From positions 158,594 to 222,593 of the forward strand of contig SVRK01000003.1 in assembly GCA_015064855.1 (NCBI GenBank): a stretch of 64,000 bases of DNA, written 5' to 3'. The notes beneath the pieces were generated by a model. It did not search any database and had not been told where the DNA came from. It saw only the letters and a program-made list of their open reading frames with translations. The stretch comes from Oscillospiraceae bacterium (lineage in GTDB: Bacteria > Bacillota > Clostridia > Oscillospirales > CAG-272). Shown here piece by piece: positions 352 through 30,721 of this stretch (position 1 is the first letter of the stretch; each line of letters starts with the position of its first letter). The position numbers and the translations under genes were made by a program.

Positions 352-1473
352 ATGAAAATCGGAATTTTGGGCTTTGGCTCAATGGGTAAGACTCACCTAT
401 ATTCTATAAAGAATATTCCCTTCTTTTTCAGTGAAAAAATTGATTTAGAGGTTGTTGCCGTTTGCACGAAAAATATTGAAAATGCGCGCAAAGCATCTGA
501 CCAATTCAACATCCCGTTTTTTACGGACAACGAGGACGATATTATTTATAATGACGAAATAGATGTTGTCGATATATGCACACCTAATATATATCATTAT
601 AATACCGTCAAAAAAGCAATCTTAGCGGGCAAGCACGTCTATTGCGAAAAGCCACTTGCAGTAACCTACGAGGAAGCCAAGGAGCTAGCAGCATTGGCAA
701 AAGAAAAGGGCGTTATATGTGGAATTGTATTTAATAATCGCTTTCTTTCTCCTATCTTAAAGGCAAAGGAGCTTGTTGATAGCGACAAAATTGGTAGGGT
801 TCTTTCGTTTAGCATAAAATATCTTCACTCCAGTGCGCTTGACACAGTGAAAAAAGCCGGCTGGAAGCAAGATAAGGATATTTGTGGAGGTGGCGTGCTT
901 TTTGACCTCGGCTCTCACGCAGTTGATTTAATTTACTATTTGTGTGGAGAATTTGACTCGGTTCTTGGAAAAAGCCAAATCGCATATCCTGTACGCACCG
1001 GTGTTGACGGAAGCGTGTGGCAAACAAATGCCGATGAAGCGTTTTATATGCTAGCAACCCTTAAAAACGGAGCGCACGGCACAATAGAGGTTTCAAAAAT
1101 CACAACTGGCGCAAATGATGATTTACGCTTTGAAATCCATGGGGAAAAGGGCTCTATTGCTTTTGACTTAATGCAGCCTAACTTTCTTGAATATTATGAT
1201 GCTACATTGCCCGATGGTACACTCGGCACTCGTGGATATACAAAAATTGAGTGTGTTAATCGTTACCCGGCTCCGGGTGGTATTTTCCCGGGCGTAAAGG
1301 CGCCTATCGGTTGGCTAAGAGGACATGTTGGCTCATATTTTGAGTTTTTATCAGCTATCAAGAACAAAAAGCGCTTTAGCCCGTCATTTGACGAAGGTGC
1401 GTATGTGCAGAAGGTACTAGAAGCGGCATATAGCTCCAATAAAAGCGGTGTATGGGAGAGGGTGCAGCTATGA
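352..1473 (+). CDS. Gfo/Idh/MocA family NAD(P)-dependent oxidoreductase
   Basis: N-terminal Rossmann motif MKIGILGFGSMG and the ..HVYCEKPLA.. motif typical of this family. RBS GAGGAAAAAGG upstream. 373 aa. Confidence 0.85.
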   Translation: MKIGILGFGSMGKTHLYSIKNIPFFFSEKIDLEVVAVCTKNIENARKASDQFNIPFFTDNEDDIIYNDEIDVVDICTPNIYHYNTVKKAILAGKHVYCEKPLAVTYEEAKELAALAKEKGVICGIVFNNRFLSPILKAKELVDSDKIGRVLSFSIKYLHSSALDTVKKAGWKQDKDICGGGVLFDLGSHAVDLIYYLCGEFDSVLGKSQIAYPVRTGVDGSVWQTNADEAFYMLATLKNGAHGTIEVSKITTGANDDLRFEIHGEKGSIAFDLMQPNFLEYYDATLPDGTLGTRGYTKIECVNRYPAPGGIFPGVKAPIGWLRGHVGSYFEFLSAIKNKKRFSPSFDEGAYVQKVLEAAYSSNKSGVWERVQL

Positions 1474-2072
1474 AAATAATAGGACTTTGTGGCACAAGCG
1501 GGTCTGGTAAGGGCTATGTTTCGCGCGTGTTTTTAAAATACGGAGTGCCTACAATCGACACTGACCAAATTTATAGGGAAATAACAATAAAAAAAGGTGC
1601 GCCGTGCCTTCGTGAGCTTGTCACCCAGTTTGGCGAACAAATTCTTGACGAAAATGGTGAGCTGGATAGAAAATCGTTAGCTAGCATTGTTTTTGAGGGC
1701 TATGGCTCGAAAAAACGCCTTGAAAAATTGAATGTGATAGCGCACAAATATATAAAATCAGATACTGAAGCTATTCTAGAAAAATATAAAAAGGAAGGCA
1801 AGCGCGCAGCTATAATAGATGCGCCAGTTCTATTTGAAAGCGGATTTGACACAATGTGTGATTTCACTATTGCCGTCACAGCACCATATGAGTTGAAGCT
1901 TGAAAGAATTATTTCACGTGATGGCATTTTGAAGGAAAAAGCGGAAGCACGCTTGAAAAATCAATTAAACGATGACGAGCTTGTCCGCCTTACAACCTAC
2001 CAAATTGACAATTCAAATTGTGAGCTGGACTTACAAATCGAGAATATTCTAAAAAAAGAAAATATTATCTAA
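1470..2072 (+). CDS. coaE: Dephospho-CoA kinase
   Basis: MKIIGLCGTSGSGKG P-loop at the N-terminus and CoaE-like length (200 aa). I chose the ATG at 1470, which overlaps the upstream stop (ATGA), rather than the longer track ORF. Confidence 0.85.
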   Translation: MKIIGLCGTSGSGKGYVSRVFLKYGVPTIDTDQIYREITIKKGAPCLRELVTQFGEQILDENGELDRKSLASIVFEGYGSKKRLEKLNVIAHKYIKSDTEAILEKYKKEGKRAAIIDAPVLFESGFDTMCDFTIAVTAPYELKLERIISRDGILKEKAEARLKNQLNDDELVRLTTYQIDNSNCELDLQIENILKKENII

Positions 2073-2085
2073 AAGGAGTAAAAAT

Positions 2086-3501
2086 ATGAAAAAGAACGCA
2101 AAAAAGATTGACAAAAATGAAGAGCTTAAAGATCTAAAAAAGAAGCTTTTTTATAAAAAAGAAAACGTTTATGACGTACGCACAAAGAAGGGTGCAAAGG
2201 AAACTGAAAGATATGCAAAGGGCTATATGAAGTTCCTTGACAACGCAAAAACCGAGCGTGAGGCAGTACGTGAGGGCATTAAAATGCTTGAGGCAAATGG
2301 TTTCGTGCCATATACTCTCGGTGGCGAAATTGTGGCAGGCGGAAAATACTATTACAACAATCGTGACAAGAGCTTGTTTGCTTTTGTTGCAGGTACTGAG
2401 AATATCGAAAATGGTATTAGAATTTGCGCCGCACATATAGACTCCCCACGTCTTGACCTCAAGCAACACCCAATGTTTGAAAACGAGGGCTTTGCTTACC
2501 TAAAGACACACTACTATGGCGGAATCAGAAAATATCAATGGGTTACAATTCCTTTGGCGCTCCACGGTGTAGTTACTACAATGGACGGACAAAACGTTGA
2601 AATCGTAATTGGTGAGGACGAGGGTGACCCAATCTTCTGCATTACCGACTTGCTCCCACACTTGGCAAGAGAGCAATCACAAAAACCTTTAGGCACAGCT
2701 ATTACAGGCGAGGGACTTAACCTTCTTATCGGCTCTGAGCCAATCGACGGCGACATTGACGAAAAGGTTAAATTCAATATGCTAAAGATTCTCAACGAGA
2801 AGTATGGAATTACCGAGAACGATTTTGTAAGTGCAGAGCTTACAGCTACTCCTGCTGGCAAGGCAAGAGATCTTGGACTTGACCGCTCAATGATTGGTGC
2901 TTATGGACACGACGACAGAGTTTGTGCATATCCATCACTTACAGCAATTATCGAAAATAAGGACAGCGAGCACACAATTATGTGCGTTCTTGCCGATAAA
3001 GAGGAAATCGGTTCAGAGGGCGTTAGCGGTATGAGATGCCGTCTTATCGTTGACCTAATCGACGAAATTTCAAAGAACCTCGGTGGTAATCCTAATGTTG
3101 TAAGAGCAAATTCAATGTGCTTATCCGCCGACGTTAGCGCCGGCTATGACCCAATGTATCCTGAAGTTTACGAAAAGAGAAACAGCGCAATAGTAAACTG
3201 TGGCGTTGTTATGAACAAATACACAGGTGGTGGCGGAAAGAGCTCCACAAACGATGCAAGCGCAGAGTACGTTGGCAAGATTAGAAAAATATTCCAGGAT
3301 GCAAAAATTACATGGCAAACAGCTGAGCTTGGCAAAATCGACGTTGGCGGTGGCGGAACAGTTGCTATGTACATTGCAAATCACAATATAAACACAGTTG
3401 ACCTCGGTGTTCCTGTTCTTTCAATGCATGCACCGATGGAGGTTATCTCAAAGAACGACCTATACGAAACTCACAGAGCGCTTTGTGCATTCTGCAAATA
3501 A
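2086..3501 (+). CDS. M18 family aminopeptidase
   Basis: 471 aa. Motifs AAHIDSPRLDLK, GHDDRVC, ADKEEIGS and SMHAP are characteristic of M18 (aspartyl/aminopeptidase I-like) enzymes. RBS AAGGAG upstream. Confidence 0.8.
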   Translation: MKKNAKKIDKNEELKDLKKKLFYKKENVYDVRTKKGAKETERYAKGYMKFLDNAKTEREAVREGIKMLEANGFVPYTLGGEIVAGGKYYYNNRDKSLFAFVAGTENIENGIRICAAHIDSPRLDLKQHPMFENEGFAYLKTHYYGGIRKYQWVTIPLALHGVVTTMDGQNVEIVIGEDEGDPIFCITDLLPHLAREQSQKPLGTAITGEGLNLLIGSEPIDGDIDEKVKFNMLKILNEKYGITENDFVSAELTATPAGKARDLGLDRSMIGAYGHDDRVCAYPSLTAIIENKDSEHTIMCVLADKEEIGSEGVSGMRCRLIVDLIDEISKNLGGNPNVVRANSMCLSADVSAGYDPMYPEVYEKRNSAIVNCGVVMNKYTGGGGKSSTNDASAEYVGKIRKIFQDAKITWQTAELGKIDVGGGGTVAMYIANHNINTVDLGVPVLSMHAPMEVISKNDLYETHRALCAFCK

Positions 3502-3514
3502 TTAGGAGACTACT

Positions 3515-4477
3515 ATGGATATTATTAAAGAACTTCGTGATTTTGGACTTGTTCCCGTAATAAAAATAACAAAGGTGGAAAATGCATTGCCACTTGCAAA
3601 GGCACTAGCTGCCGGTGGACTTAACTGTGCGGAAATTACATTCCGTACCGAATGTGCGGCTGAGGCAATCGCTGTAATCACAAAGGAAATGCCAGATATG
3701 CTTGTTGGCGCAGGAACAGTTTTAACACCCGAGCAAGCTGACAAGGCAATTGAGGCCGGCTCAAAGTTTATCGTTAGCCCTGGCTTTAACCCAAGAGTTG
3801 TTAAGCATTGCCTTGAAAAGGGTATACCTGTGCTTCCCGGCTGTGCAACACCTTCAGAGGTAGAGGCAGCTATGGAGCTTGGCTTAAAGGCAGTTAAATT
3901 TTTCCCAGCCGAGGCGGCAGGTGGACTTAATATGATTAAGTCTATGTCCGCACCTTATGGTGGCATTGAGTTTATGCCAACAGGTGGTATAAACGACGAA
4001 AATATGCTTGATTATCTCGCATTTGGCAAGATTATCGCATGTGGCGGCAGCTTTATGGTTAAGGACTCATTAATTGAGGCTGGCAACTTCGAGGAAATCA
4101 CTCGCTTAACAAAAAATGCAGTTATGAAAATGCTCGGCTTTAAGCTTGCTCACGTTGGCATCAACTGTGAAAACAAGGATGAGGCTACAAAGGGCGCAAA
4201 ATTGCTTTGCACACTCTTTGGTCTTGAATATAAGGAAGGAAATTCTTCTACATTTGTAGGCTCCGAATTTGAGCTTATGCACGAGCCATACCTTGGCAAA
4301 AACGGACACATTGCAATTTCAACAAACTTTGCATCCCGTGCAAAGGCTTATCTTGAAAAGCAAGGCATCGAGTTTAATGATGCAACCGCAAAGTATGATG
4401 CAAAGGGTAACTTGAAGGTTATATACTTGAAGGAAGAAATTTGCGGCTTTGCAATTCACCTAGTGGAGAAAAAATAA
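3515..4477 (+). CDS. eda: KDPG/KHG aldolase (Eda) with a C-terminal VOC/glyoxalase-fold domain
   Basis: The first ~205 aa match Eda (VPVIKI.., GLNCAEITFRT, KFFPAE, MPTGGI). The last ~110 aa (HVGINCEN..GHIAIST..GFAIHLVEK) look like a vicinal-oxygen-chelate domain. Confidence 0.8.
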   Translation: MDIIKELRDFGLVPVIKITKVENALPLAKALAAGGLNCAEITFRTECAAEAIAVITKEMPDMLVGAGTVLTPEQADKAIEAGSKFIVSPGFNPRVVKHCLEKGIPVLPGCATPSEVEAAMELGLKAVKFFPAEAAGGLNMIKSMSAPYGGIEFMPTGGINDENMLDYLAFGKIIACGGSFMVKDSLIEAGNFEEITRLTKNAVMKMLGFKLAHVGINCENKDEATKGAKLLCTLFGLEYKEGNSSTFVGSEFELMHEPYLGKNGHIAISTNFASRAKAYLEKQGIEFNDATAKYDAKGNLKVIYLKEEICGFAIHLVEKK

Positions 4478-4480
4478 TTT

Positions 4481-5551
4481 ATGTTTAATAGATTAAACGA
4501 GGCTGAAAAGCGCTACCTTGAAATTGAGGGTGCGCTTGCCGACCCCGAAATAACGGGCAACCAAGCGGAATTCACAAAAACAATGAAGGAGTATAAAAAT
4601 CTAACTCCCATAATTGAAAAATACCGCGAGTATAAAAAAACCGCATCCGACCTTGAGGGCGCAAAGTCCATAATGGAGGAGGAAAGCGGAGAAATGTATG
4701 ACCTCGCCGTTGAAGAATATAAGGATTGTAAGGAAAGACTTGCAGTAATTGAAGAGGAATTAAAGTTCCTTTTGATACCAAAAGACCCTAACGATGACAA
4801 AAACGTTATCGTTGAAATAAGAGCAGGTGCCGGTGGCGAGGAAGCAGCCTTGTTTGCCTCTGTCCTTTATCGTATGTATTCGATGTATGCAGATTCAAAC
4901 GGCTTTAAAACCGAGCTTACAGGCTTTAATGAAACCGGTCTTGGTGGCTTTAAGGAGGTTACCTTCTTAATTTCAGGTGAAGGAGCATATTCTCGCTTCA
5001 AATTCGAAAGCGGAGTACACAGGGTTCAAAGAGTTCCCGAAACAGAAACGCAGGGTAGAATCCATACATCAACAGCAACAGTTGCAGTGCTTCCCGAGGC
5101 TGAGGACGTTGAGGTTGAGCTCAATATGAGCGATGTTACAGTTGAAACCTGCAAGAGTAGTGGCGCAGGTGGTCAGCACGTAAATAAAACAGAAAGTGCT
5201 ATTCGTCTTATACACAAGCCAACTGGCATAGTTGTTGAGTGTCAGGACGAGCGTAGCCAGTTTAAAAACAAAGACAAGGCGTTTAAGATTCTTCGCGCAA
5301 AGCTTTATGATATGAAGCAACAGGAGCAAAGCGATAAAATCGCATCCGAGCGTAAGAGTCAGGTTGGAACAGGCGACCGTAGTGAAAGAATCAGAACCTA
5401 CAACTACCCACAGGGCAGAGTTACCGACCATAGAATCGGATTTACAATCTATTCACTTGAAGCATTTTTGAATGGCGACATCGGTGAAATGCTTGAGAAA
5501 TTAGCAACTGCAGATGCTGCAGAAAAATTAAAGGGCGAACAAAATAACTAA
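4481..5551 (+). CDS. prfA: Peptide chain release factor 1
   Basis: GGQ motif (SSGAGGQHVNKTESA) and an RF1-type tripeptide region (RVPETETQGRIHTS). 356 aa. Confidence 0.95.
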   Translation: MFNRLNEAEKRYLEIEGALADPEITGNQAEFTKTMKEYKNLTPIIEKYREYKKTASDLEGAKSIMEEESGEMYDLAVEEYKDCKERLAVIEEELKFLLIPKDPNDDKNVIVEIRAGAGGEEAALFASVLYRMYSMYADSNGFKTELTGFNETGLGGFKEVTFLISGEGAYSRFKFESGVHRVQRVPETETQGRIHTSTATVAVLPEAEDVEVELNMSDVTVETCKSSGAGGQHVNKTESAIRLIHKPTGIVVECQDERSQFKNKDKAFKILRAKLYDMKQQEQSDKIASERKSQVGTGDRSERIRTYNYPQGRVTDHRIGFTIYSLEAFLNGDIGEMLEKLATADAAEKLKGEQNN

Positions 5552-5565
5552 AAACGGAGAGGAAA

Positions 5566-6612
5566 ATGGAAACTAAAATTTTCAAGGTTACAAAAGATAG
5601 CTTGAATATTTTAAAGGAAGCAAGTGAACTACTAAACAGCGGTAAGCTTGTGGCTTTTCCCACCGAAACAGTTTATGGATTAGGCGCAAATGCCTATGAT
5701 AGTGAGGCTTGCAAAAGCATATTTTTAGCAAAGGGCAGACCAAGTGACAATCCTTTGATTGTTCATATTTCAAAGCCCGAGGATGCCGAAAATATCGCAT
5801 ATACCTGCCCACTTTATTATGAGCTGGCAAAAGCCTTTATGCCGGGACCCTTGACAGTTATTTTACCTAAAAAGGACGTAATACCATATGAGGTGACGGC
5901 AGGACTTAATACAGTCGCTATAAGATGCCCCAAAAACGAGGTGGCAAACAAGCTTATAGAGATTGCAAAAATTCCGATAGCCGCACCGTCAGCCAATTCC
6001 TCGGGCAAGCCGTCGCCTACAAGCGCAAAGCACGTATACGACGACTTAAATGATAAAATCCCTATGATACTTGACGGAGGAGATTCCGAGTTTGGTGTTG
6101 AGTCCACAGTTATCACAATCAAGGACGATACAATTACTATTCTTCGCCCAGGCTCGGTTACACCTAAAATGCTTGAGGGAGTGTCTAAAAACGTTAAAAT
6201 AGCATCTGCAGTTAAGGAAGAATTAAAGGCGGGTGAAACGGCACTGTCCCCAGGTATGAAATATAAGCATTATGCCCCAACGGCAAACTTATATTTGATT
6301 GATGATAAATATATTAACTTTATAGATTTTGTAAAAGAAAAGCAAAAAACCGAAAACTGCGCGGTAATGTGTTATGATGAGGAAATTTCCTCGTTTGATA
6401 ACAAAAATTTATTGCCCGTAGGAAAAAAGAAGGACATAAAGAAGCAGACAAAAAGGCTGTTTAATCTTTTGCGACAGGCGGACGACCTAGGGGTCGATAC
6501 CGTTTATGCTCATCTGCCAAGCGATGACGGAGAGTCCTTAGCAATTTATAACAGAATGATTCGTGCTTGTGCACATCGTGTGATAGGAGGTAAAAATGGC
6601 GAAGACAGCTAA
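5566..6612 (+). CDS. tsaC: L-threonylcarbamoyladenylate synthase (Sua5/YwlC type)
   Basis: YrdC domain (VAFPTETVYGLGANA, KGRPSDNPLIVH) plus a Sua5 C-terminal domain. 348 aa. Confidence 0.9.
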   Translation: METKIFKVTKDSLNILKEASELLNSGKLVAFPTETVYGLGANAYDSEACKSIFLAKGRPSDNPLIVHISKPEDAENIAYTCPLYYELAKAFMPGPLTVILPKKDVIPYEVTAGLNTVAIRCPKNEVANKLIEIAKIPIAAPSANSSGKPSPTSAKHVYDDLNDKIPMILDGGDSEFGVESTVITIKDDTITILRPGSVTPKMLEGVSKNVKIASAVKEELKAGETALSPGMKYKHYAPTANLYLIDDKYINFIDFVKEKQKTENCAVMCYDEEISSFDNKNLLPVGKKKDIKKQTKRLFNLLRQADDLGVDTVYAHLPSDDGESLAIYNRMIRACAHRVIGGKNGEDS

Positions 6613-8848
6613 AAAGCAAGAAAAGAAAAAGTACGTTGAAAGTGAGCCAATGCTTCAACCGATAACGGAAACTATAGAAACAAACTATATGCCGTATGCG
6701 GTTAGCGTTATGGTTTCGCGTGCTATTCCTGAAATTGACGGCTTTAAGCCCGCACACAGAAAGCTTCTTTATACGATGTATAAAATGGGACTTTTGCACG
6801 GCAGACGTACAAAGAGTGCGAACATCGTTGGTGCAACGATGAAGCTTAACCCACACGGTGATGCCTCAATTTATGAAACAATGGTTCGTCTAACCTCTGC
6901 AAACGAGTCGCTTTTGCATCCGTTTGTTGATTCAAAGGGTTCATTTGGTAAGCAGTATAGCCGAGATATGGCGTTTGCCGCATCAAGATATACAGAGGCA
7001 AAGCTTGACACCTTCTGCCAAGAAATTTTCTCAGGTATTGACAAGGATGCCGTTGATATGGTGGATAACTACGACAGCACAACGAAGGAGCCACGCCTTT
7101 TGCCAACAACCTTCCCCAATATTTTGGTTTCCTCAAACCTTGGTATTGCCGTTGGTCTTGCATCCTCCATTTGTTCATTCAATCTACAAGAAATTTGCGA
7201 TGCGACGATTGCTCTTTTGCGCTCTCCTCGCACAGATATTGAAAAAATACTCGACATAGTTAAAGCACCTGATTTTCCGGGTGGCGCATCCGTTGTTTAC
7301 GACCGTGAGCAAATTAAAAAGGTTTACGAAACAGGAAAAGGACCGATTAAGCTCCGCGCAAAATACGTATACGACTCTGAGGAAAACTGTATAGAGATAC
7401 TTGAAATTCCTTATTCCACCTCAATAGAGGCGATAATTAAGGATATAAACGACCTCTTTAAGGCGGGAAAATTGAAGGAGGTTACAGGCGTTCGCGATGA
7501 AATTGATTTGAACGGCTTCAAGCTTACAATCGACTTAAAGCGCGGAACAGACCCCGACCAATTAATGCAAAAGCTTTATAAATTTACTCCGCTTGAGGAT
7601 AACTTCCCGTGTAACTTTAACGTTTTGATAGATGGCTCACCAAAGCAGCTCGGCGTTAAGGACATACTTACTGAATGGATTAAGTTTAGAACTAATTGCT
7701 TGCGCCGTGAATATATCTTCGACCTTGATAAAAAGAGTCACAAGCTTCATCTCTTACTTGGCCTTGGTAAAATTCTACTTGATATTGACAAGGCTGTTAA
7801 AATAGTGAGAGAGACAGAGAAGGATGAGGACGTTGTTCCAAACCTTATTAAGGGCTTCGAGGTTGACAAGGAGCAGGCAGAATATATAGCTGACATCAAG
7901 CTCCGTCATTTAAATAGAGAATATATTATGAACCGTCTTGAGGATATTGACAATCTTCAAAAGGAAATTGCAGAAATTAAAGCAATTCTTGATGACGAGC
8001 TTAAAATGAAGGCGGTAATAATAAAGCAACTGAACGATATAAAAAAGAAATATGGAAAGCCAAGAAAAACTCAAATCATTGATTCCGATGATATTAAAGA
8101 ATTTTCAAAGGAAAGCTTGATTGAGGATTATTCAGCGCACCTATTCTTCACAAAGGATGGTTACTTAAAGAAAATCACACAGCAATCCTTGCGCGGTAAC
8201 TCCGAGCAGAAGATAAAGGAAGATGATGAAATAATTTTCGAGGGTGAGATAAGAAACAAGGATGAAATAATTTTCTTTACAGATAAAGCACAGCTTTATT
8301 TTGCAAAGATGTCTGATTTTGCTCTCTGTAAAGCTTCAGAAATGGGAGATTACGTACCAAAGCACTTGAATTTTGACAACAACGAAAGAGTTGTTTTTAT
8401 GAAGGTCAACCCTTCGTATGATGAAAATCAAAACGTTATTTTCTTCTTTGAAAACGGCAAGGCTGTAAGAGTGCCGATGAGCCAATATCAGACACAGGGC
8501 TCAAGGAAAAAACTCAAAAAGGCATTTTCTGATGCTTCAAAAATAGTGAAAATCATTTACGAAACAAGTGATGATTACATTATGATGATAAACTCTGAAT
8601 CTAAAGCAATACTAATTAAACCATCGTTCATTCCTGTAAAGACAACCAGAACCTCAATAGGTACTGTTGCTTTTGCAATGAATTTAAAGAAAAACCAAAA
8701 AATCAAAAAGGTTTTAACCGATTATGAAAAGAAATATCCCGAGGCAAAAGAAACGTATAGAAAAATAAAAATTCCTGCAACAGGGGTTTTGATTTCTAAA
8801 AAGAAGCCAAAGGACCCACAACTAAAAATAAAATTTGAGGAGAATTAA
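6596..8848 (+). CDS. parC: Type IIA topoisomerase subunit A (ParC-type)
   Basis: N-terminal MPYAVSVMVSRAIPEIDGFKPAHRKLLY and the catalytic-Tyr region AASRYTEAKL. 750 aa. I did not spot a GyrA box in the C-terminal domain. GGAGG RBS 6 nt before the ATG. Overlaps the tsaC stop by 17 nt. Confidence 0.8.
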   Translation: MAKTAKKQEKKKYVESEPMLQPITETIETNYMPYAVSVMVSRAIPEIDGFKPAHRKLLYTMYKMGLLHGRRTKSANIVGATMKLNPHGDASIYETMVRLTSANESLLHPFVDSKGSFGKQYSRDMAFAASRYTEAKLDTFCQEIFSGIDKDAVDMVDNYDSTTKEPRLLPTTFPNILVSSNLGIAVGLASSICSFNLQEICDATIALLRSPRTDIEKILDIVKAPDFPGGASVVYDREQIKKVYETGKGPIKLRAKYVYDSEENCIEILEIPYSTSIEAIIKDINDLFKAGKLKEVTGVRDEIDLNGFKLTIDLKRGTDPDQLMQKLYKFTPLEDNFPCNFNVLIDGSPKQLGVKDILTEWIKFRTNCLRREYIFDLDKKSHKLHLLLGLGKILLDIDKAVKIVRETEKDEDVVPNLIKGFEVDKEQAEYIADIKLRHLNREYIMNRLEDIDNLQKEIAEIKAILDDELKMKAVIIKQLNDIKKKYGKPRKTQIIDSDDIKEFSKESLIEDYSAHLFFTKDGYLKKITQQSLRGNSEQKIKEDDEIIFEGEIRNKDEIIFFTDKAQLYFAKMSDFALCKASEMGDYVPKHLNFDNNERVVFMKVNPSYDENQNVIFFFENGKAVRVPMSQYQTQGSRKKLKKAFSDASKIVKIIYETSDDYIMMINSESKAILIKPSFIPVKTTRTSIGTVAFAMNLKKNQKIKKVLTDYEKKYPEAKETYRKIKIPATGVLISKKKPKDPQLKIKFEEN

Positions 8849-8849
8849 A

Positions 8850-8960
8850 ATGAACAATAAGATTTTTGTAAGAATTATGTGTGTAGTGCTTGGCGTTTTA
8901 ATGCTAGCTAGTGCAGTTGCACTTATTGCATCAGGCTTTATAACCTCTTGTGCAGCATAA
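8850..8960 (+). CDS. 36-aa hydrophobic peptide (small membrane protein candidate)
   Basis: ATG 2 nt after the parC stop, with a GAGGAG RBS 8 nt upstream. Sequence MNNKIFVRIMCVVLGVLMLASAVALIASGFITSCAA has one TM span and is followed by a strong terminator. Not in the ORF track (under 60 aa). Confidence 0.45.
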   Translation: MNNKIFVRIMCVVLGVLMLASAVALIASGFITSCAA

Positions 8961-8979
8961 CTTGAAAATTTGTAATAGA

Positions 8980-9016
8980 AAACGGGCATCAGCAAAAGGT
9001 TGATGCCCGTTTTTTA
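8980..9016 (+). terminator. Rho-independent terminator
   Basis: ACGGGCATCA - loop - TGATGCCCGT followed by TTTTTT. Confidence 0.85.
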
Positions 9017-9035
9017 TAGTAATGAATTGAATGGC

Positions 9036-9219
9036 GGTTCTTCATTATTTTTCATGATAAACAAAAGCAGCAGGCTGAAGTAGGGGCGACCATTGGTCGT
9101 CCGAGGTAACCGTAGAAACGGGAAGGCTCGACAAGCGAGCTATTTCTGCTCACCTTATGCTCGCGAGCGGCAACAGTTTCGACAGAAATGCGAACCCAAT
9201 TTGTGCAAAGCACAAAGAC
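9036..9219 (+). ncRNA. Candidate structured RNA, unit 1 of the tandem array
   Basis: Hairpins GGCGACC-ATT-GGTCGTC and GCTCG-ACAAG-CGAGC, long-range stem ATTTCTG..CAGAAAT, and terminal hairpin GAACCC[..TTGTGC-AAA-GCACAA..]GGGTTC plus a T-rich tail. The transcript is not demonstrated. Confidence 0.4.
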
Positions 9220-9403
9220 GGGTTCTTCGTTATTTCTCATGATAAACAAAACAGCAGGCTGAAGTAGGGGCGACCATTGGTCGTCCGAGGTAACCATAGA
9301 AACGCGAAGGCTCGACAAGCGAGCTATTTCTGCTCACCTTATGCTCGCGAGCGGCACCGGTTTCGACAGAAATGCGAACCCAATTTGTGCAAGGCACAAA
9401 GAC
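9220..9403 (+). ncRNA. Candidate structured RNA, unit 2 of the tandem array
   Basis: Same helices as unit 1, with only a few substitutions. Confidence 0.4.
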
Positions 9404-9594
9404 GAGTTTTTCATTATTTCTCATAATAAACAAAACAGCAGGCTGAAGTAGGGGAGACCATTGGTCGTCCGAGGTAACCGTAGAAACGCGAAGGCTCGAC
9501 AAGTGAGCTATTTTCATCTAGCCTTTTGTGAGCAAGCTCCCGTCGGCTTTAGCTGAAAATGCGAACTCGATTTAAATCACAGATTTAAAGACGG
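9404..9594 (+). ncRNA. Candidate structured RNA, unit 3 (diverged 3' half)
   Basis: Stems are kept through compensatory changes: ATTTTCA..TGAAAAT, GAGCAAGCTC, and AACTCG[ATTTAAATC-ACA-GATTTAAA..]CGGGTT followed by TTTTCGTT. Confidence 0.4.
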
Positions 9595-9620
9595 GTTTTT
9601 CGTTATTCCTCGCGATAAAC

Positions 9621-9656
9621 AAAAACAGCAGACACTTTGGTCTGCTGTTTTGTTTA
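9621..9656. terminator. Bidirectional terminator (3' of tRNA-Leu and end of the repeat array)
   Basis: CAGCAGAC-ACTTTG-GTCTGCTG is flanked by A-run/T-run on both strands. Confidence 0.8.
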
Positions 9657-9740
<84 letters not shown>

Positions 9741-9769
9741 ATATATCGGTTTTTCAACCTTGCCAACAT

Positions 9770-9798
9770 ATTATACTAAAACATTATCGGTTTGTCAA
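9770..9798 (-). promoter_or_regulatory. Sigma-A promoter for tRNA-Leu
   Basis: On the minus strand: TTGACA, 17 nt, TATAAT, about 30 nt upstream of the tRNA 5' end. Confidence 0.7.
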
Positions 9799-9861
9799 TA
9801 CTTTTTTTATATTTTTTTAAAAAAGTTTTATATGTCGTTTCCATAGCGAAATTTAATTATA

Positions 9862-28435: not shown

Positions 28436-30721
28436 ATGAAAAAGATAATATTGATTAACGTTTTAACCTTGGTTCTTACTTTACTGTTATTATGCGGATG
28501 TCACGCTCCTTTGAATACCGATACTGAAACCGATACTGAAACGGAAGATGCAACCGATACCTTGGATGGGAGTGATACCGAAAAGGACTCAAGCAGCGAG
28601 ACGGAAACGGCGACTGATGAATCCGCGAGTGATTCAAGCACTGAAACATCAAAGGATGAGCCGATTCCTGATGTTGAAGATGCCATTATTGAAATGAATA
28701 ATTTGCTTGTAACATATAATGGCGAATATACGGTTACTATATGTGATGGGCAAAGAAAAGTTGTTTTTGATAAGGATGGCAACGTTACAAAATGCGTTAA
28801 CATCACCTTGATTGAGGATATTAAATTTGATTATACCTATCGCATAAAAAGCATTGATCAAATCAAAGCAGAGCTTGGAGAGCCGCACGTTGATATAGGC
28901 AAATCCGGCGAAGATTATATCTATACTCCATCATATGTAACCAACGACGGATTTTTGATTTCGTTTATATTGGATGAAAGAAACAACGCCAATAGTGCTG
29001 AAAAAATAGATTTGTTCTCTGGTGATATAGTCGACTGGATAGAAATAGATTATACTCCAGTTGAAACAGATACCTCAACCGACACAAGCACAGAAATTGA
29101 AAATCCCAAAACACCATCAGAAAATACACAAACAGTAACATGGCAATTTAACTACGATTACGGATTCCATCACGAAAACTCCGCAACCTTGCTTATTGAC
29201 TATGGAAGGCTGATACATGGCTTTGAAAATGTTATTATCCCCGATGATATAGTAGCGGGCGATTCTATTACTATTGAATACACAGGCGGAATAAGTATAG
29301 CGGAGAGTTATCCCAGTGGTATATACTTACATGACGGTGAGGTAATATCTTATTCCTTTAAATATGCAAGCGTTGTTCCGTTTTCTCTTACTAAAACAAG
29401 TATTGAAAGACTAAGGGAAGAATATGATATAGCTGAAGAATATGTCATCGTTGATAGATCCGGTAAGTATCAAACCTTAGAGGAGTCCATAGGAAAAACA
29501 ATATATTTAGTTACCGACCAAAAAAAGGTGAGTGAGCACCCGAATAATTGGGGATTCCCTGCGGACAAATATCCAATATCATCTATGTTTGCTTTCAATC
29601 CTCGCGACCTAAAGGTGGGGATATCTCCTGTTGAACCAAGGAATGAAAAGGTTGTTTTTGACCTTGATTATCACCATCTCAGCAATGAGCTTATAGAAAA
29701 GGAAGAGGACAAAACGGATCCAACCAAATTCTATTGCGGATATATTTGCAAGGACGAAAACGGAAACGAATTTATCGCGTATGCGCCGAATTTGTATAGC
29801 TACACAGTTCTAATAGAGTGCACGGAGGATAAAAGCCTAGCGTACGATTGGATAAACAATGTTTTAACTCAGTTTAATCCGTGGTATAGCACGGGTAGGT
29901 GCGATGTAGAAATTGACACACAAGATCTTCCAAACGATATGATTTTAATCACATTTCCGGATTTTGATACCTATTTTACCTGTCAAAACGATTTACTTAA
30001 CAAGCTGAGCGTGCTTGAATGTGTCAAAAAAATCCATATCACTTATGTAGATGCTCAAAACGGAACGTATTTTCCTAAAAACCCTTATGTGGTTTATGCA
30101 GATGTAGGAAGCAAATATTATAAAAACGACGTATTTACTACCTATGATGAATTTACAAGCGCACTTGGCTCCTGCATAGAAAGTAGTCTGGGATTACAAG
30201 CAATAACAGAAAGTACATTTGAAAACAACTATGTGTTTGTTGTAACAAATTGGCATTGGCGTGAGCTTAAAATAAGTGATGCAAGAGCCGTAGGAGATAC
30301 AGTTTATTTTACAAATAATGAATTTCAAGGCAAGGGCGAGCTGCACGATATGCTGGCATATGAAAACTCGTGTGTTATAGTTGTACCAAAGGATGAAATA
30401 GGCGAGCTTCCGGAAAATGTATCGGTCAAGACAGTTAATACTACAATCTATGTTGACGGATTCGCAGATTATGGGGACGCAGAGGGCGCTATTATAATTG
30501 CGTTAGAGCATTTTTCTTCAAGCGACAAGCAAGCTTTGCCAGAGGGCTATATATATAAAGCTAAAGCCGTAGACCGTAAGTACGATTATTGCCATTACGT
30601 GCTTATTTATCCCGAATATGTAGGCGATTCAGATAGTATTGTTGATGTATGGGGCGGTGGCTATCTTTACGCAATAGATAAATTCACCAAGGAAATTGTC
30701 AGTGTAGAAATTTTAGAATAA
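28436..30721 (+). CDS. Large lipoprotein of unknown function
   Basis: Signal peptide plus lipobox (LLLLCGC), an acidic TDTETDTETED.. linker, a second TDTSTDTST linker near aa 210, then ~530 aa with no motif I recognise. AGGAGG RBS. Confidence 0.8.
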   Translation: MKKIILINVLTLVLTLLLLCGCHAPLNTDTETDTETEDATDTLDGSDTEKDSSSETETATDESASDSSTETSKDEPIPDVEDAIIEMNNLLVTYNGEYTVTICDGQRKVVFDKDGNVTKCVNITLIEDIKFDYTYRIKSIDQIKAELGEPHVDIGKSGEDYIYTPSYVTNDGFLISFILDERNNANSAEKIDLFSGDIVDWIEIDYTPVETDTSTDTSTEIENPKTPSENTQTVTWQFNYDYGFHHENSATLLIDYGRLIHGFENVIIPDDIVAGDSITIEYTGGISIAESYPSGIYLHDGEVISYSFKYASVVPFSLTKTSIERLREEYDIAEEYVIVDRSGKYQTLEESIGKTIYLVTDQKKVSEHPNNWGFPADKYPISSMFAFNPRDLKVGISPVEPRNEKVVFDLDYHHLSNELIEKEEDKTDPTKFYCGYICKDENGNEFIAYAPNLYSYTVLIECTEDKSLAYDWINNVLTQFNPWYSTGRCDVEIDTQDLPNDMILITFPDFDTYFTCQNDLLNKLSVLECVKKIHITYVDAQNGTYFPKNPYVVYADVGSKYYKNDVFTTYDEFTSALGSCIESSLGLQAITESTFENNYVFVVTNWHWRELKISDARAVGDTVYFTNNEFQGKGELHDMLAYENSCVIVVPKDEIGELPENVSVKTVNTTIYVDGFADYGDAEGAIIIALEHFSSSDKQALPEGYIYKAKAVDRKYDYCHYVLIYPEYVGDSDSIVDVWGGGYLYAIDKFTKEIVSVEILE

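Follow-up and report, generated by a model that had tools for sequence, protein, structure and literature searches.

The question raised by this stretch of DNA (the window, 64,000 nt in all) is what a tandem array standing beside a tRNA gene and regulating no downstream gene can be. The array consists of three units of 184 nt at positions 9036-9587, next to tRNA-Leu(GAG), and its sequence is identical in two independent assemblies. A single array was detected by TRF (9036-9513; period 184, 2.6 copies, 94% matches, 0 indels), and the 38-mer GCTGAAGTAGGGGCGACCATTGGTCGTCCGAGGTAACC, for which dinucleotide shuffles give 0 expected matches, is present at 9074, 9258 and 9442 with 0, 0 and 1 mismatches; CAGGCTGAAG is found at 9071, 9255 and 9439. 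These results bear out the 184-nt tandem repeat that an earlier note on this DNA had described, as well as its remark that the units have no gene downstream to control. The core of unit 2 is 94% identical to that of unit 1. Alignment of the units showed that unit 3 agrees with the others in its 5' half but has diverged in its 3' half, where ATTTCTG/CAGAAAT is replaced by ATTTTCA/TGAAAAT, a compensatory swap, and the terminal hairpin is also exchanged, just as the note had read it. Unit 3 is a mosaic, since its long hairpin is nearest to the units of the related loci L102 and L103, and its last hairpin to those of L021_2 and L109. A peptide-coding array was ruled out: the period is no multiple of 3, a 36-aa ORF of the + strand loses its ATG in unit 3, and the variation tracks the helices. 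The features of the locus are collected in Table 1.

Table 1. Features of the repeat array and of its borders, in window coordinates.
Feature	Position	Strand	Evidence or sequence
Left border of the array (T2): intrinsic terminator of the operon with the parC-like and 41-aa peptide genes	8981..9018	+	GGGCATCAGCAAAAGGTTGATGCCC then TTTTTT
Repeat unit 1 (TRF phase)	9036..9219; conserved core 9108-9225	+	TRF, alignment, covariance model R1 (115 bits)
Repeat unit 2	9220..9403; conserved core 9292-9409	+	TRF, alignment, covariance model R1 (108.5 bits)
Repeat unit 3	9404..9587; conserved core 9476-9598	+	TRF, alignment, covariance model R1 (121.8 bits)
Box 1, CCGTAGAAACGGGAA(GG)	9110..9124; again 9294, 9478	+	identical to the tRNA 3' end over 11 nt
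Hairpin H1, GGCTCG-ACAAG-CGAGCT	9125..9141; again 9309, 9493	+	terminator-like scan; covariation CG/UA, columns 20-32
Long hairpin H2/H3 (ATTTCTG ... CAGAAAT) with small apical hairpin	9142..9189	+	folds; double changes in 7/13 pairs
Outer stem GAACCC/GGGTTC around hairpin H4 (TTTGTGC-AAA-GCACAAA)	9192..9225	+	double changes in 6/7 inner pairs
Unit junction GACGGGTTCTTCGTTATTTCTCATGATAAACAAAACAGCAG	9217..9257; again 9401-9441, partial 9040-9073	+	match to tRNA-Leu end and trailer
Spacer module, GTAGGGG + hairpin GGCGACC-ATT-GGTCGTC	9080..9103; again 9264, 9448	+	junctions of this genome
"Fourth partial unit": inverted copy of the tRNA 3' end (9590-9621) + bidirectional terminator T1 (9622-9651)	9590..9651		alignment, terminator scan
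tRNA-Leu(GAG), from which the boxes derive and which is conserved beside the array	9657..9740	-	ARAGORN; Rfam tRNA, 49.2 bits
Promoter of tRNA-Leu, TTGACA-17-TATAAT, 12/12 consensus matches	9770..9798	-	promoter scan; cross-species alignment

Homologous units were found in about 10 related uncultured Clostridia of the ruminant gut. In related loci totalling 316 kb, covariance model R1 recovered 19 units, all of which adjoin tRNA-Leu(GAG); the question of the earlier note whether the linkage is conserved is thereby answered in the affirmative. The orientation of the units relative to the tRNA is constant, and in two species (L024 and L025) the promoter, the tRNA and the array are inverted as one block with this orientation unchanged; linkage and orientation are thus fixed across species, inversion of the entire block included. 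The association persists among relatives with 71-81% ParC identity, and a similar one was absent from the four other tRNAs sampled. The number of units ranges from 0 to 3 or more per locus, with one in L109, L112, L105 and L106, two in L103, and three in the window and in L025, while in L111 the unit core was removed by an untidy internal deletion. In the single-copy relatives the unit begins 6-30 nt past the terminator of the neighbouring operon (6 nt in L112), and the gap between units of L025 is only 8 nt. L105 and L106 carry a 45-nt box-like piece at the apex of the long hairpin, and the gene content beside the array differs between relatives. A module resembling the GTAGGGG-hairpin spacer is present in L027 and absent from the junctions of L024, L025 and L103. 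A core profile used with nhmmer reached the close clade only and did not join the window-type units to those of the L027-L035 type; a weak match of model R1 in L030 was rejected as spurious. No further copy of the unit was detected in the 64-kb window or in approximately 250 kb of related flanks.

Three covarying hairpins in a row make up the unit. In 19 distinct units, paired cells amount to 93.2%, versus 79.9% in shuffles, and none of 500 shuffles reached as high a value; slid controls gave 28-52%. In the alignment fitted to the model, double changes were observed in 20 of the 35 pairs. The unit is therefore genuinely structured, as the earlier note had proposed, and all its helices covary. 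The outer stem of H4 appears in L102 as the compensated variant GAACAC/GTGTTC, and the apical hairpin of H2/H3 surrounds a near-palindrome, GCTCGCGAGC in the window and GCTTGCAAGC in most relatives. A cloverleaf-like closing helix, formed by the 5' box and a 3' tRNA-like tail, was also considered: it is strong in L028, L031 and L035, and weak and without covariation in the clade of the window. The failure to place the element in a known RNA family was confirmed, given that Rfam 15 at the gathering threshold matched only the tRNA in the window, no match over the units appeared at E <= 10, and nothing but tRNA was matched in seven related loci at E <= 1. The resemblance to the ykkC core that had been mentioned in passing found no support, with zero ykkC matches even at E <= 10.

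A feature that goes beyond the earlier note is that the conserved boxes copy the 3' end of tRNA-Leu in both orientations and are tied to this tRNA across species. At their conserved feet, the hairpins consist of copies of the final 25 or so nt of tRNA-Leu, inverted and direct in alternation. Box 1, nearly invariant in 14 units, includes AGAAACGGGAA, the reverse complement of TTCCCGTTTCT in the tRNA, and the outer stem of H4 contains T-arm copies, inverted in GAACCC and direct in GACGGGTTC. The units of L025 terminate in ...CGTTTCTCGCACCA, and one copy retains 22 of the last 26 bases of the tRNA in inverted orientation; the boxes are freshly tRNA-like in this species and decayed in its sister L024. 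Ten of 16 species-level loci have a significant direct copy of the tRNA end (11-21 nt exact, 138-208 nt beyond the tRNA), which in seven of the ten lies 161-174 nt after the tRNA, and about eight have a significant inverted copy, at 42-62 nt with one exception. In L029 and L035 the direct repeat extends for 53-65 nt, trailer included. The boxes also follow a difference in the T-loop of the tRNA, AAGTCCC versus GATTCCC corresponding to GGGACT versus GGGAA. The junction between units is a decayed copy of the T-arm, the acceptor 3' strand, the trailer and the 5' arm of the terminator (38 nt at 89%, E = 5e-9, plus a 16-nt exact match to the trailer), and each unit of L103 contains a full copy of T1; these homologies uphold the idea, already put forward in the note, that the array grew by duplication at the 3' flank of the tRNA. 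The partial fourth copy noticed at about 9590-9633 is real and, together with T1 and the tRNA 3' end, forms a single long imperfect palindrome. These matches show that the boxes stem from the 3' end of tRNA-Leu. The unit interior bears no similarity to the region upstream of the tRNA, and the idea that the entire tRNA gene was duplicated together with its promoter was therefore rejected.

The degree of conservation is relevant to whether these copies matter to the cell. Fourfold sites of parC show 45-57% identity between species, and neither the spacer upstream of the tRNA promoter nor the T2 terminators can be aligned; an A/T-rich stretch upstream of the promoter and the leader are kept. The units show 70-96% identity inside the species group of the window, and 61-78% when compared with L024 and L025 (74-78% for matching types). 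The units thus exceed neutral DNA in conservation by a wide margin, and something selects for them; moreover, all species share the same departures of the boxes from the tRNA, so that the boxes are conserved in their own right. These data bear directly on the view that the array is a functionless by-product of template switching at the terminator hairpin, with its arms kept matched and its boxes refreshed by gene conversion from the tRNA. Several features agree with this view: the locus is made of mirror-image copies chained around hairpins, the long hairpin carries at its apex, where L105 and L106 have the 45-nt insertion, a perfect or near-perfect palindrome, folding energy has no strand bias, and the contrast between the L025 and L024 boxes suggests conversion. 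It is nevertheless hard to reconcile with the near-identity of unit parts not derived from the tRNA across species that have reached saturation at neutral sites, with the shared departures of the boxes, and with a tie to one tRNA that lasts at the ParC divergence given above and is missing from the other tRNAs sampled, and we consider it improbable.

A different proposal is that the units are miniature or decayed integrative elements that used tRNA-Leu as attachment site, the boxes being recombinase sites and the tandem copies the outcome of repeated insertion. Repeats of a tRNA attachment site are left by integrative elements such as ICEBs1, which resides at a tRNA-Leu gene with flanking repeats of the same size as those of L029 and L035, and by remnants of cis-mobilizable elements in streptococci. 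The array is similar in having direct copies of the tRNA 3' end downstream of an intact tRNA, sometimes in tandem, that bracket a segment of about 165-190 bp, and in its variable flanking genes; its boxes of both orientations, its variable copy number, the modules shuffled among species, and a folding energy without strand bias together with the lack of a promoter also speak for the proposal. The array differs in that the flanked segment is only about 170 bp, in its inverted copies, in its covarying hairpins, a feature that tRNA attachment sites are not known to require, and in its conservation across species. Pfam scans of the array neighbours in the window, L027, L028 and L031 revealed no integrase or recombinase, and L103 shows nothing more than a fragment of IS3 type, without relation to the tRNA. 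No precise empty site (attB) was seen, the unit-less loci L026 and L036 being too distant to compare and the L111 deletion imprecise, and copy-number steps are equally well accounted for by unequal recombination. The array had no BLAST match in phage and plasmid collections; a strict pattern of the 5' motif specific to the window had zero matches in 185,579 species genomes and chance matches only, within coding regions, in viral and metagenome contigs; and of two core patterns searched in viral contigs, one gave a single chance match and the other none. This proposal seems to us rather unlikely. The earlier note had instead favoured transcripts of the + strand; on this view the units would be three free-standing small RNA genes, each transcribed and terminated separately and acting in trans. 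Whole units of the window do fold better on this strand (z = -4.2 and -2.6 versus -2.7 and -1.0), covariation is strong, the 5' box is rich in purines, the closing pairs of H1 and the apical hairpin are conserved G-U, and a scan of the + strand finds H1 terminator-like. However, the same scan does not pick the terminal hairpin, which is followed by TTCTTCGTTATTTCTC in the window and by GAGATTCCTYG, without a U-rich tail, in L024 and L025, so that these sequences do not bear out a conserved terminator cap. A promoter scan of the + strand from 8960 to 9600 found no sigma-70-like site, and the short spacings in L112 and L025 as well as in the other single-copy relatives also argue against separate transcription. 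Over 15 distinct units the opposite strand folds equally well or better (mean MFE -41.6 versus -40.0 kcal/mol), and the G-U counts are balanced in H2 (14 v 15), reversed in H4 (8 v 15) and favourable to the + strand only in H1 (16 v 0). The G-U pairs from which the strand had been deduced thus exist in the window, but neither strand folds better over the wider set; some lean to the + strand remains, given that G-U exceeds A-C by 53 to 14 in the model-fitted alignment, or 23 to 14 when two near-invariant positions are removed. Known tandem multi-copy small RNAs (LhrC1-4, NsiR1, Qrr) are likewise near-identical structured units of 100-200 nt, each with a promoter and a terminator, whereas no promoter was found in the array and its terminator-like tail is not kept in L024 and L025. 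Separate genes of this kind strike us as distinctly unlikely, and the array looks like an accessory of the tRNA-Leu gene.

The explanation that we tentatively favour is that the array may well be a lineage-specific, tRNA-derived, cis-linked hairpin-repeat module of the tRNA-Leu(GAG) locus, with a putative role in cis. Read in the direction of the tRNA, the locus is ordered F0, T1, R1, H4, F1, H2/H3, R2, H1 and F2, where F0 is the tRNA 3' end, F1 and F2 are direct copies, and R1 and R2 inverted ones. Adjacent F and R boxes would pair to form the hairpin feet, and the tops would be free to vary as long as they stay paired. We infer that the tRNA 3' end was first duplicated as a mirror image about the palindromic terminator T1, a stage represented by L041, which has F0-T1-R1 alone. 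Later, the array could have grown and shrunk by unequal recombination of its tRNA-like direct copies with the tRNA gene, an event that would leave tRNA trailer or terminator at the junction.

The least certain part of this explanation is that the module would work in cis as a folded single strand. The units sit between two strong convergent terminators, T2 and T1, the latter with a 12-bp stem and a U-tract that begins 1 nt past the CCA, and the strand would most probably be RNA produced by transcription through either of them; because both look strong, such read-through RNA may be scarce. The boxes would pair with the 3' strand of tRNA-Leu or mimic it, and the hairpins would serve as a two-way backstop or a processing platform behind the tRNA gene. 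In predicted folds of the tRNA with T1 and the inverted copy, the inverted copy displaces the acceptor and T-arm pairing in the window and in three of four relatives (L041, L031 and L112); in the fourth, L103, it is predicted to pair only with the acceptor 3' strand and the CCA. In the predicted fold of the read-through transcript of the window, the 9590-9621 copy pairs with the tRNA 3' strand. The strong conservation of sequences that do not come from the tRNA, such as CCTTTTGCTTGCAAGCAGA and AAATGCGAACCC, is left unexplained by a role as backstop or terminator, and the missing strand bias fits a DNA-level role equally with a two-way RNA role. A more specific possibility, which we regard as speculative and of low probability, is an undescribed class of tRNA-derived regulatory RNA that combines an anti-tRNA box, complementary to tRNA-Leu(GAG) in its T-stem and acceptor 3' strand, with a mimic of the same 3' end. 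If so, it would sense or control the folding, processing or supply of this tRNA, or alternatively serve as a decoy for a factor with specificity for the acceptor and T-arm, and copy number would tune its effect.

Two other known systems are similar to the module in part, and no described equivalent was found in the literature. The 3'ETS-leuZ of E. coli is an RNA from the 3' external transcribed spacer of a tRNA, located before the terminator, functional and dependent on the tRNA-Leu promoter; the array, too, adjoins a tRNA-Leu gene at its 3' side, but its units lie past a strong terminator and their transcription is putative. REP/BIME and MITE-like elements are short non-coding imperfect palindromes, sometimes clustered, placed between convergent genes. 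The units answer to the same description, and the window spacer resembles REPs in starting with GTAG and continuing with a palindrome; in contrast, one locus was seen per genome, always at one tRNA and with no other copy in the window, the boxes are tRNA-derived, and target-site duplications are missing. Should the module have a function, and its conservation suggests that it does, the bacterium would have turned the terminal part of a tRNA gene into a structured, conserved element still attached to the gene, an arrangement absent from the Rfam catalogue. The array is also a clear test case for separating the sources of compensatory evolution in hairpins, i.e., RNA function, recombinase sites and palindrome-driven mutation. 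From a practical standpoint, it was also observed that the array breaks metagenome assemblies at the tRNA-Leu locus, and that gene callers place a spurious 95-aa gene over it.

The repeat unit of the array is built from pieces of the 3' end of the adjacent tRNA-Leu(GAG), and this make-up is the principal new finding of the analysis. The junction between units (GACGGGTTCTTCGTTATTTCTCATGATAAACAAAACAGCAG) is a decayed copy of the T-arm and acceptor 3' strand of tRNA-Leu, together with the tRNA trailer and the 5' arm of the terminator; it matches the tRNA-Leu region over 38 nt (E = 5e-9), and a further match is exact over 16 nt. The copies in the related locus L025 are fresher, i.e., the unit ends in ...GACGGGTGAGATTCCTCGTTTCTCGCACCA, and one copy matches 22/26 of the last tRNA bases. 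In every unit the conserved 5' box carries AGAAACGGGAA, which is the exact complement of tRNA TTCCCGTTTCT, and CAGAAATGCGAACCC is a shorter complement to that region. In the direction of the tRNA, the locus consists of F0 (the tRNA end), T1 (the bidirectional tRNA terminator), R1 (an inverted copy of the tRNA end), hairpin H4, F1 (direct), H2/H3 (the long hairpin), R2 (inverted), hairpin H1 and F2 (direct), and the bases of the hairpins are formed by pairing between adjacent boxes.

Tandem Repeats Finder detected one array only (period 184 nt, 2.6 copies, 94% matches, zero indels), and a 38-nt stretch of the unit occurs at three positions with 0, 0 and 1 mismatch where chance predicts none; the 184-nt period described in the earlier note is thus borne out. 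Alignment likewise agreed with its account of unit 3: the 5' halves are near-identical in all three units, while the 3' half of unit 3 is diverged and carries the helix replacements listed there. The partial fourth copy is also present, leading into the tRNA-Leu terminator. Two metagenome assemblies made independently agree on the array at every base, which rules out an assembly artefact. A 95-aa ATG ORF that spans units 2 and 3, and that the JGI assembly (L002) annotates as a gene, is almost certainly spurious, since the period is not divisible by 3 and the variation tracks the helices.

Features of the array, its surroundings and related loci
Feature	Locus	Position	Strand	Remark
Hydrophobic peptide ORF, 36-41 aa (MNNKIFVRIMCVVLGVLMLASAVALIASGFITSCAA)	window	8851-8960	+	begins at stop codon of parC-like gene
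Tandem array (Tandem Repeats Finder)	window	9036-9513
38-nt stretch of unit	window	9074, 9258, 9442
GTAGGGG spacer and GC-rich hairpin	window	9080-9103		just upstream of AGAAACGGGA box
GTAGGGG spacer and GC-rich hairpin	L027	8420-8450		just upstream of AGAAACGGGA box
95-aa ORF	window	9230-9517	-
95-aa ORF, gene call	L002	3629-3916
tRNA-Leu(GAG)	window	9657-9740	-	array neighbour
tRNA-Leu promoter region	window	9741-9835	-	perfect TTGACA-17-TATAAT
761-aa ORF	window	28436-30721	+	no Pfam match at E <= 1e-5
Apical insertion, ~45 nt	L105	3600-3660		same place in L106
Unrelated array behind tRNA-Leu(GAG)	L032	9525-9760		other species
Array-to-parC-operon interval, MAG RGIG4685	L103	4026-4971
Array-to-parC-operon interval, MAG RGIG4685	L023	6360-6531

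Related loci were gathered with two queries, the topoisomerase protein and homologues of the 81-aa protein. Among them, BLASTN, nhmmer and a covariance model of the unit core built here (also named R1) found the unit only immediately beside tRNA-Leu(GAG); none of the four other tRNA genes within the fetched loci shows a comparable arrangement (0/4). The number of copies is 3 in the window and L025, 2.5 in L024, 2 in L103, at least 2 in L021 (where the array lies at a contig end), and 1 in L109 and L112, as well as in L105 and L106, whose single copy has a 45-nt insertion inside the long hairpin; in L111 the core is deleted. The insertion in L105 and L106 sits exactly at the palindromic apex and is itself composed of tRNA-box-like sequence (GGGGTCCTCGAAACGAAGAATGAG...GGGGTTCTCGGG). 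In L024 and L025 the block of promoter, tRNA, terminator and units is inverted as a whole with respect to the flanking genes, yet the orientation of the units relative to the tRNA is unchanged.

In five more distant loci (L027, L028, L029, L031 and L035) the internal sequence of the unit differs but the plan is the same: a terminator, an inverted T-arm copy, ~100 nt of hairpins and an exact direct copy (12-21 nt) of the tRNA end, which in L029, L031 and L035 is duplicated together with trailer and terminator. The boxes of these loci track the T-loop of their own tRNA (GGGACT with tRNA AAGTCCC, versus GGGAA in the window). L041 has F0-T1-R1 alone, with an inverted copy of 17 nt. The direct copy is significant at 10 of 16 species-level loci, in 7 of these 10 at 161-174 nt past the tRNA end; that of the window is weaker and lies at 169 nt. 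The inverted copy is significant at about 8 of the 16, at 42-62 nt in all except L025, where the best one sits in a later unit. Both copies are absent at 4/16. A spacer module of GTAGGGG plus hairpin, reminiscent in form of REP sequences (GTAG and a palindrome), is common to the window and the otherwise unlike units of L027, and absent in L024, L025 and L103.

From these data, we firmly regard the array as a hairpin-repeat module that derives from the tRNA-Leu 3' end, is linked in cis to this tRNA gene, and gains and loses whole units. Growth by unequal recombination of the tRNA with its direct, tRNA-like copies is well supported, because the junctions contain tRNA trailer and terminator sequence, most clearly in L103, L029, L031 and L035. 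The first step may have been a mirror-image copying of the tRNA end over the palindromic terminator, as L041 and the alternating chain of boxes would indicate. Behind the same tRNA, L032 has an array of another kind, with three variable GC-rich hairpins each followed by GCATATCATC, and then three inverted boxes GATGATATRC with a hairpin or a short variable segment after each; this suggests that the tRNA-Leu flank draws hairpin-plus-box repeats.

RNAalifold on ten units predicted H1, H2, a small apical hairpin and H4, with 13 of 26 pairs maintained by double changes. In a model-based alignment of 19 distinct units, pairing reaches 93.2% of cells versus 79.9% in column shuffles (0/500 as high), double changes occur at 20/35 pairs, and sliding the partners reduces pairing to 28-52%. 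The outer stem GAACCC/GGGTTC is fully compensated in L102 as GAACAC/GTGTTC. Sequence is conserved at the bases of the helices and in the boxes (AACCGYAGAAACGGGAAGG, CTATTT, TTGCAAGCAG at the apex, AAATGCGAACCC-N-ATT and AGACGGGT), and variation falls in loops and distal stems.

In the topoisomerase gene next to the array, fourfold-degenerate sites of the window are 45-49% identical to those of L024/L025, and identity inside its own group is 53-57%; neither the terminators of the parC-like operon (T2) nor the spacer that precedes the tRNA promoter can be aligned among these genomes. Identity among the units, non-tRNA stretches included, is 70-96% inside the group and 61-78% with L024/L025 (74-78% for matching types). 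Compared with those sites and spacers, these values exclude plain neutral decay. The units are also mosaics: unit 3 of the window has H1 as in units 1 and 2, the long hairpin as in L102/L103 and H4 as in L021/L109. The pattern reflects either purifying selection or genome-to-genome exchange, and this level of conservation contradicts the view that the units are a by-product of palindrome-driven template switching.

A rival view is that the units are free-standing + strand sRNAs, each capped by a terminator, as the earlier note proposed. A U-rich tail follows the terminal hairpin in the window clade and is missing in L024 and L025; the full units of the window fold better on the + strand, a pattern that is not general among relatives. 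The argument for + transcripts from G-U pairs is not decisive: over 15 distinct cores the mean MFE is -40.0 kcal/mol for that strand versus -41.6 for the opposite one, which folds better in 10/15, and G-U pairs are balanced in H2 (14 versus 15) and reversed in H4 (8 versus 15), with 16 versus 0 at the invariant closing pair of H1. G-U exceeds A-C by 53 to 14 in the fitted alignment (23 to 14 without two near-invariant positions), a count biased because this alignment was built on the + strand. No sigma-70-like promoter was found on the + strand inside or before the array; in single-copy relatives the unit starts 6-30 nt past the terminator of the neighbouring operon, and only 8 nt separate successive units in L025. 

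On the minus strand, the units come after T1, a terminator that has a 12-bp stem and starts right after CCA. The A/T-rich upstream stretch of the tRNA promoter and its ~35-nt leader (GGCAAGGTTGAAAAACC...) are nearly identical in all relatives, whereas the adjacent upstream DNA is unalignable. As strong convergent terminators bound the array on both sides, RNA from it would be a read-through product. For what selection acts on, a function in cis is favoured, exerted by a folded single strand within such transcripts, since the location, missing promoters, fixed linkage and weak strand asymmetry fit it; the boxes would mimic the 3' strand of the tRNA or pair with it, and the hairpins would act as a two-way backstop. 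In thermodynamic predictions of read-through tRNA+T1+R1, R1 displaces the acceptor/T-arm pairing in the window and 3/4 relatives tested; in L103 it is predicted to pair with the acceptor 3' strand and CCA only. This role does not explain the conserved non-tRNA sequences.

In another rival reading, the units would be non-autonomous or decayed integrative elements and the boxes recombinase sites; no integrase was found next to the arrays scanned (window, L027, L028 and L031), and neither an empty site among the relatives compared nor a viral match was seen. The unit has some traits of tRNA attachment-site repeats, of REP-type palindromic units, of tandem sRNA genes and of tRNA 3' trailer RNAs, but lacks at least one defining feature of each. 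The comparison with Rfam proposed in the earlier note places the units in no family (Rfam 15, zero matches even at E <= 10), phage and plasmid collections contained nothing resembling the array, and the literature search yielded no described equivalent.

The neighbours of the array are housekeeping genes, in the order Sua5, GyrA/ParC-type topoisomerase subunit, 41-aa hydrophobic peptide, array, tRNA-Leu, 81-aa membrane protein, MiaB, YlbF, MutS and MutL; no integrase, transposase or reverse transcriptase was present among the window ORFs scanned (352-8960 and 9900-32194). A 761-aa ORF among otherwise well-annotated housekeeping genes has no Pfam match at E <= 1e-5. The strongly hydrophobic peptide ORF is kept at the same position in L021, L023, L024, L025 and L030, and looks like a real small membrane protein. 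The nearest genomes are uncultured Clostridia/Eubacteriales MAGs from the gut of goat, deer, sheep and yak; one source assigns the 81-aa protein to a Ruminococcaceae MAG.

Three close-relative MAG contigs stop at or shortly before the expected array position. These belong to the three closest species-representative MAGs (L021, L022 and L023), and their ends fall somewhere from the start of the small-peptide gene to ~530 nt past the parC-like gene, so that the locus is systematically under-assembled; this suggests that repeats break assemblies here. In the L023 genome the break coincides with an IS3-type insertion. In this MAG, RGIG4685, the interval between the array and the parC operon holds a gene for a 262-aa HTH_3/membrane protein and an IS3-family insertion (an rve_2 fragment; transposase start MAKKGSKQKRYSTEFK), and its contig breaks are attributed to this insertion because the same ~20-nt flanking sequence is common to both contigs.
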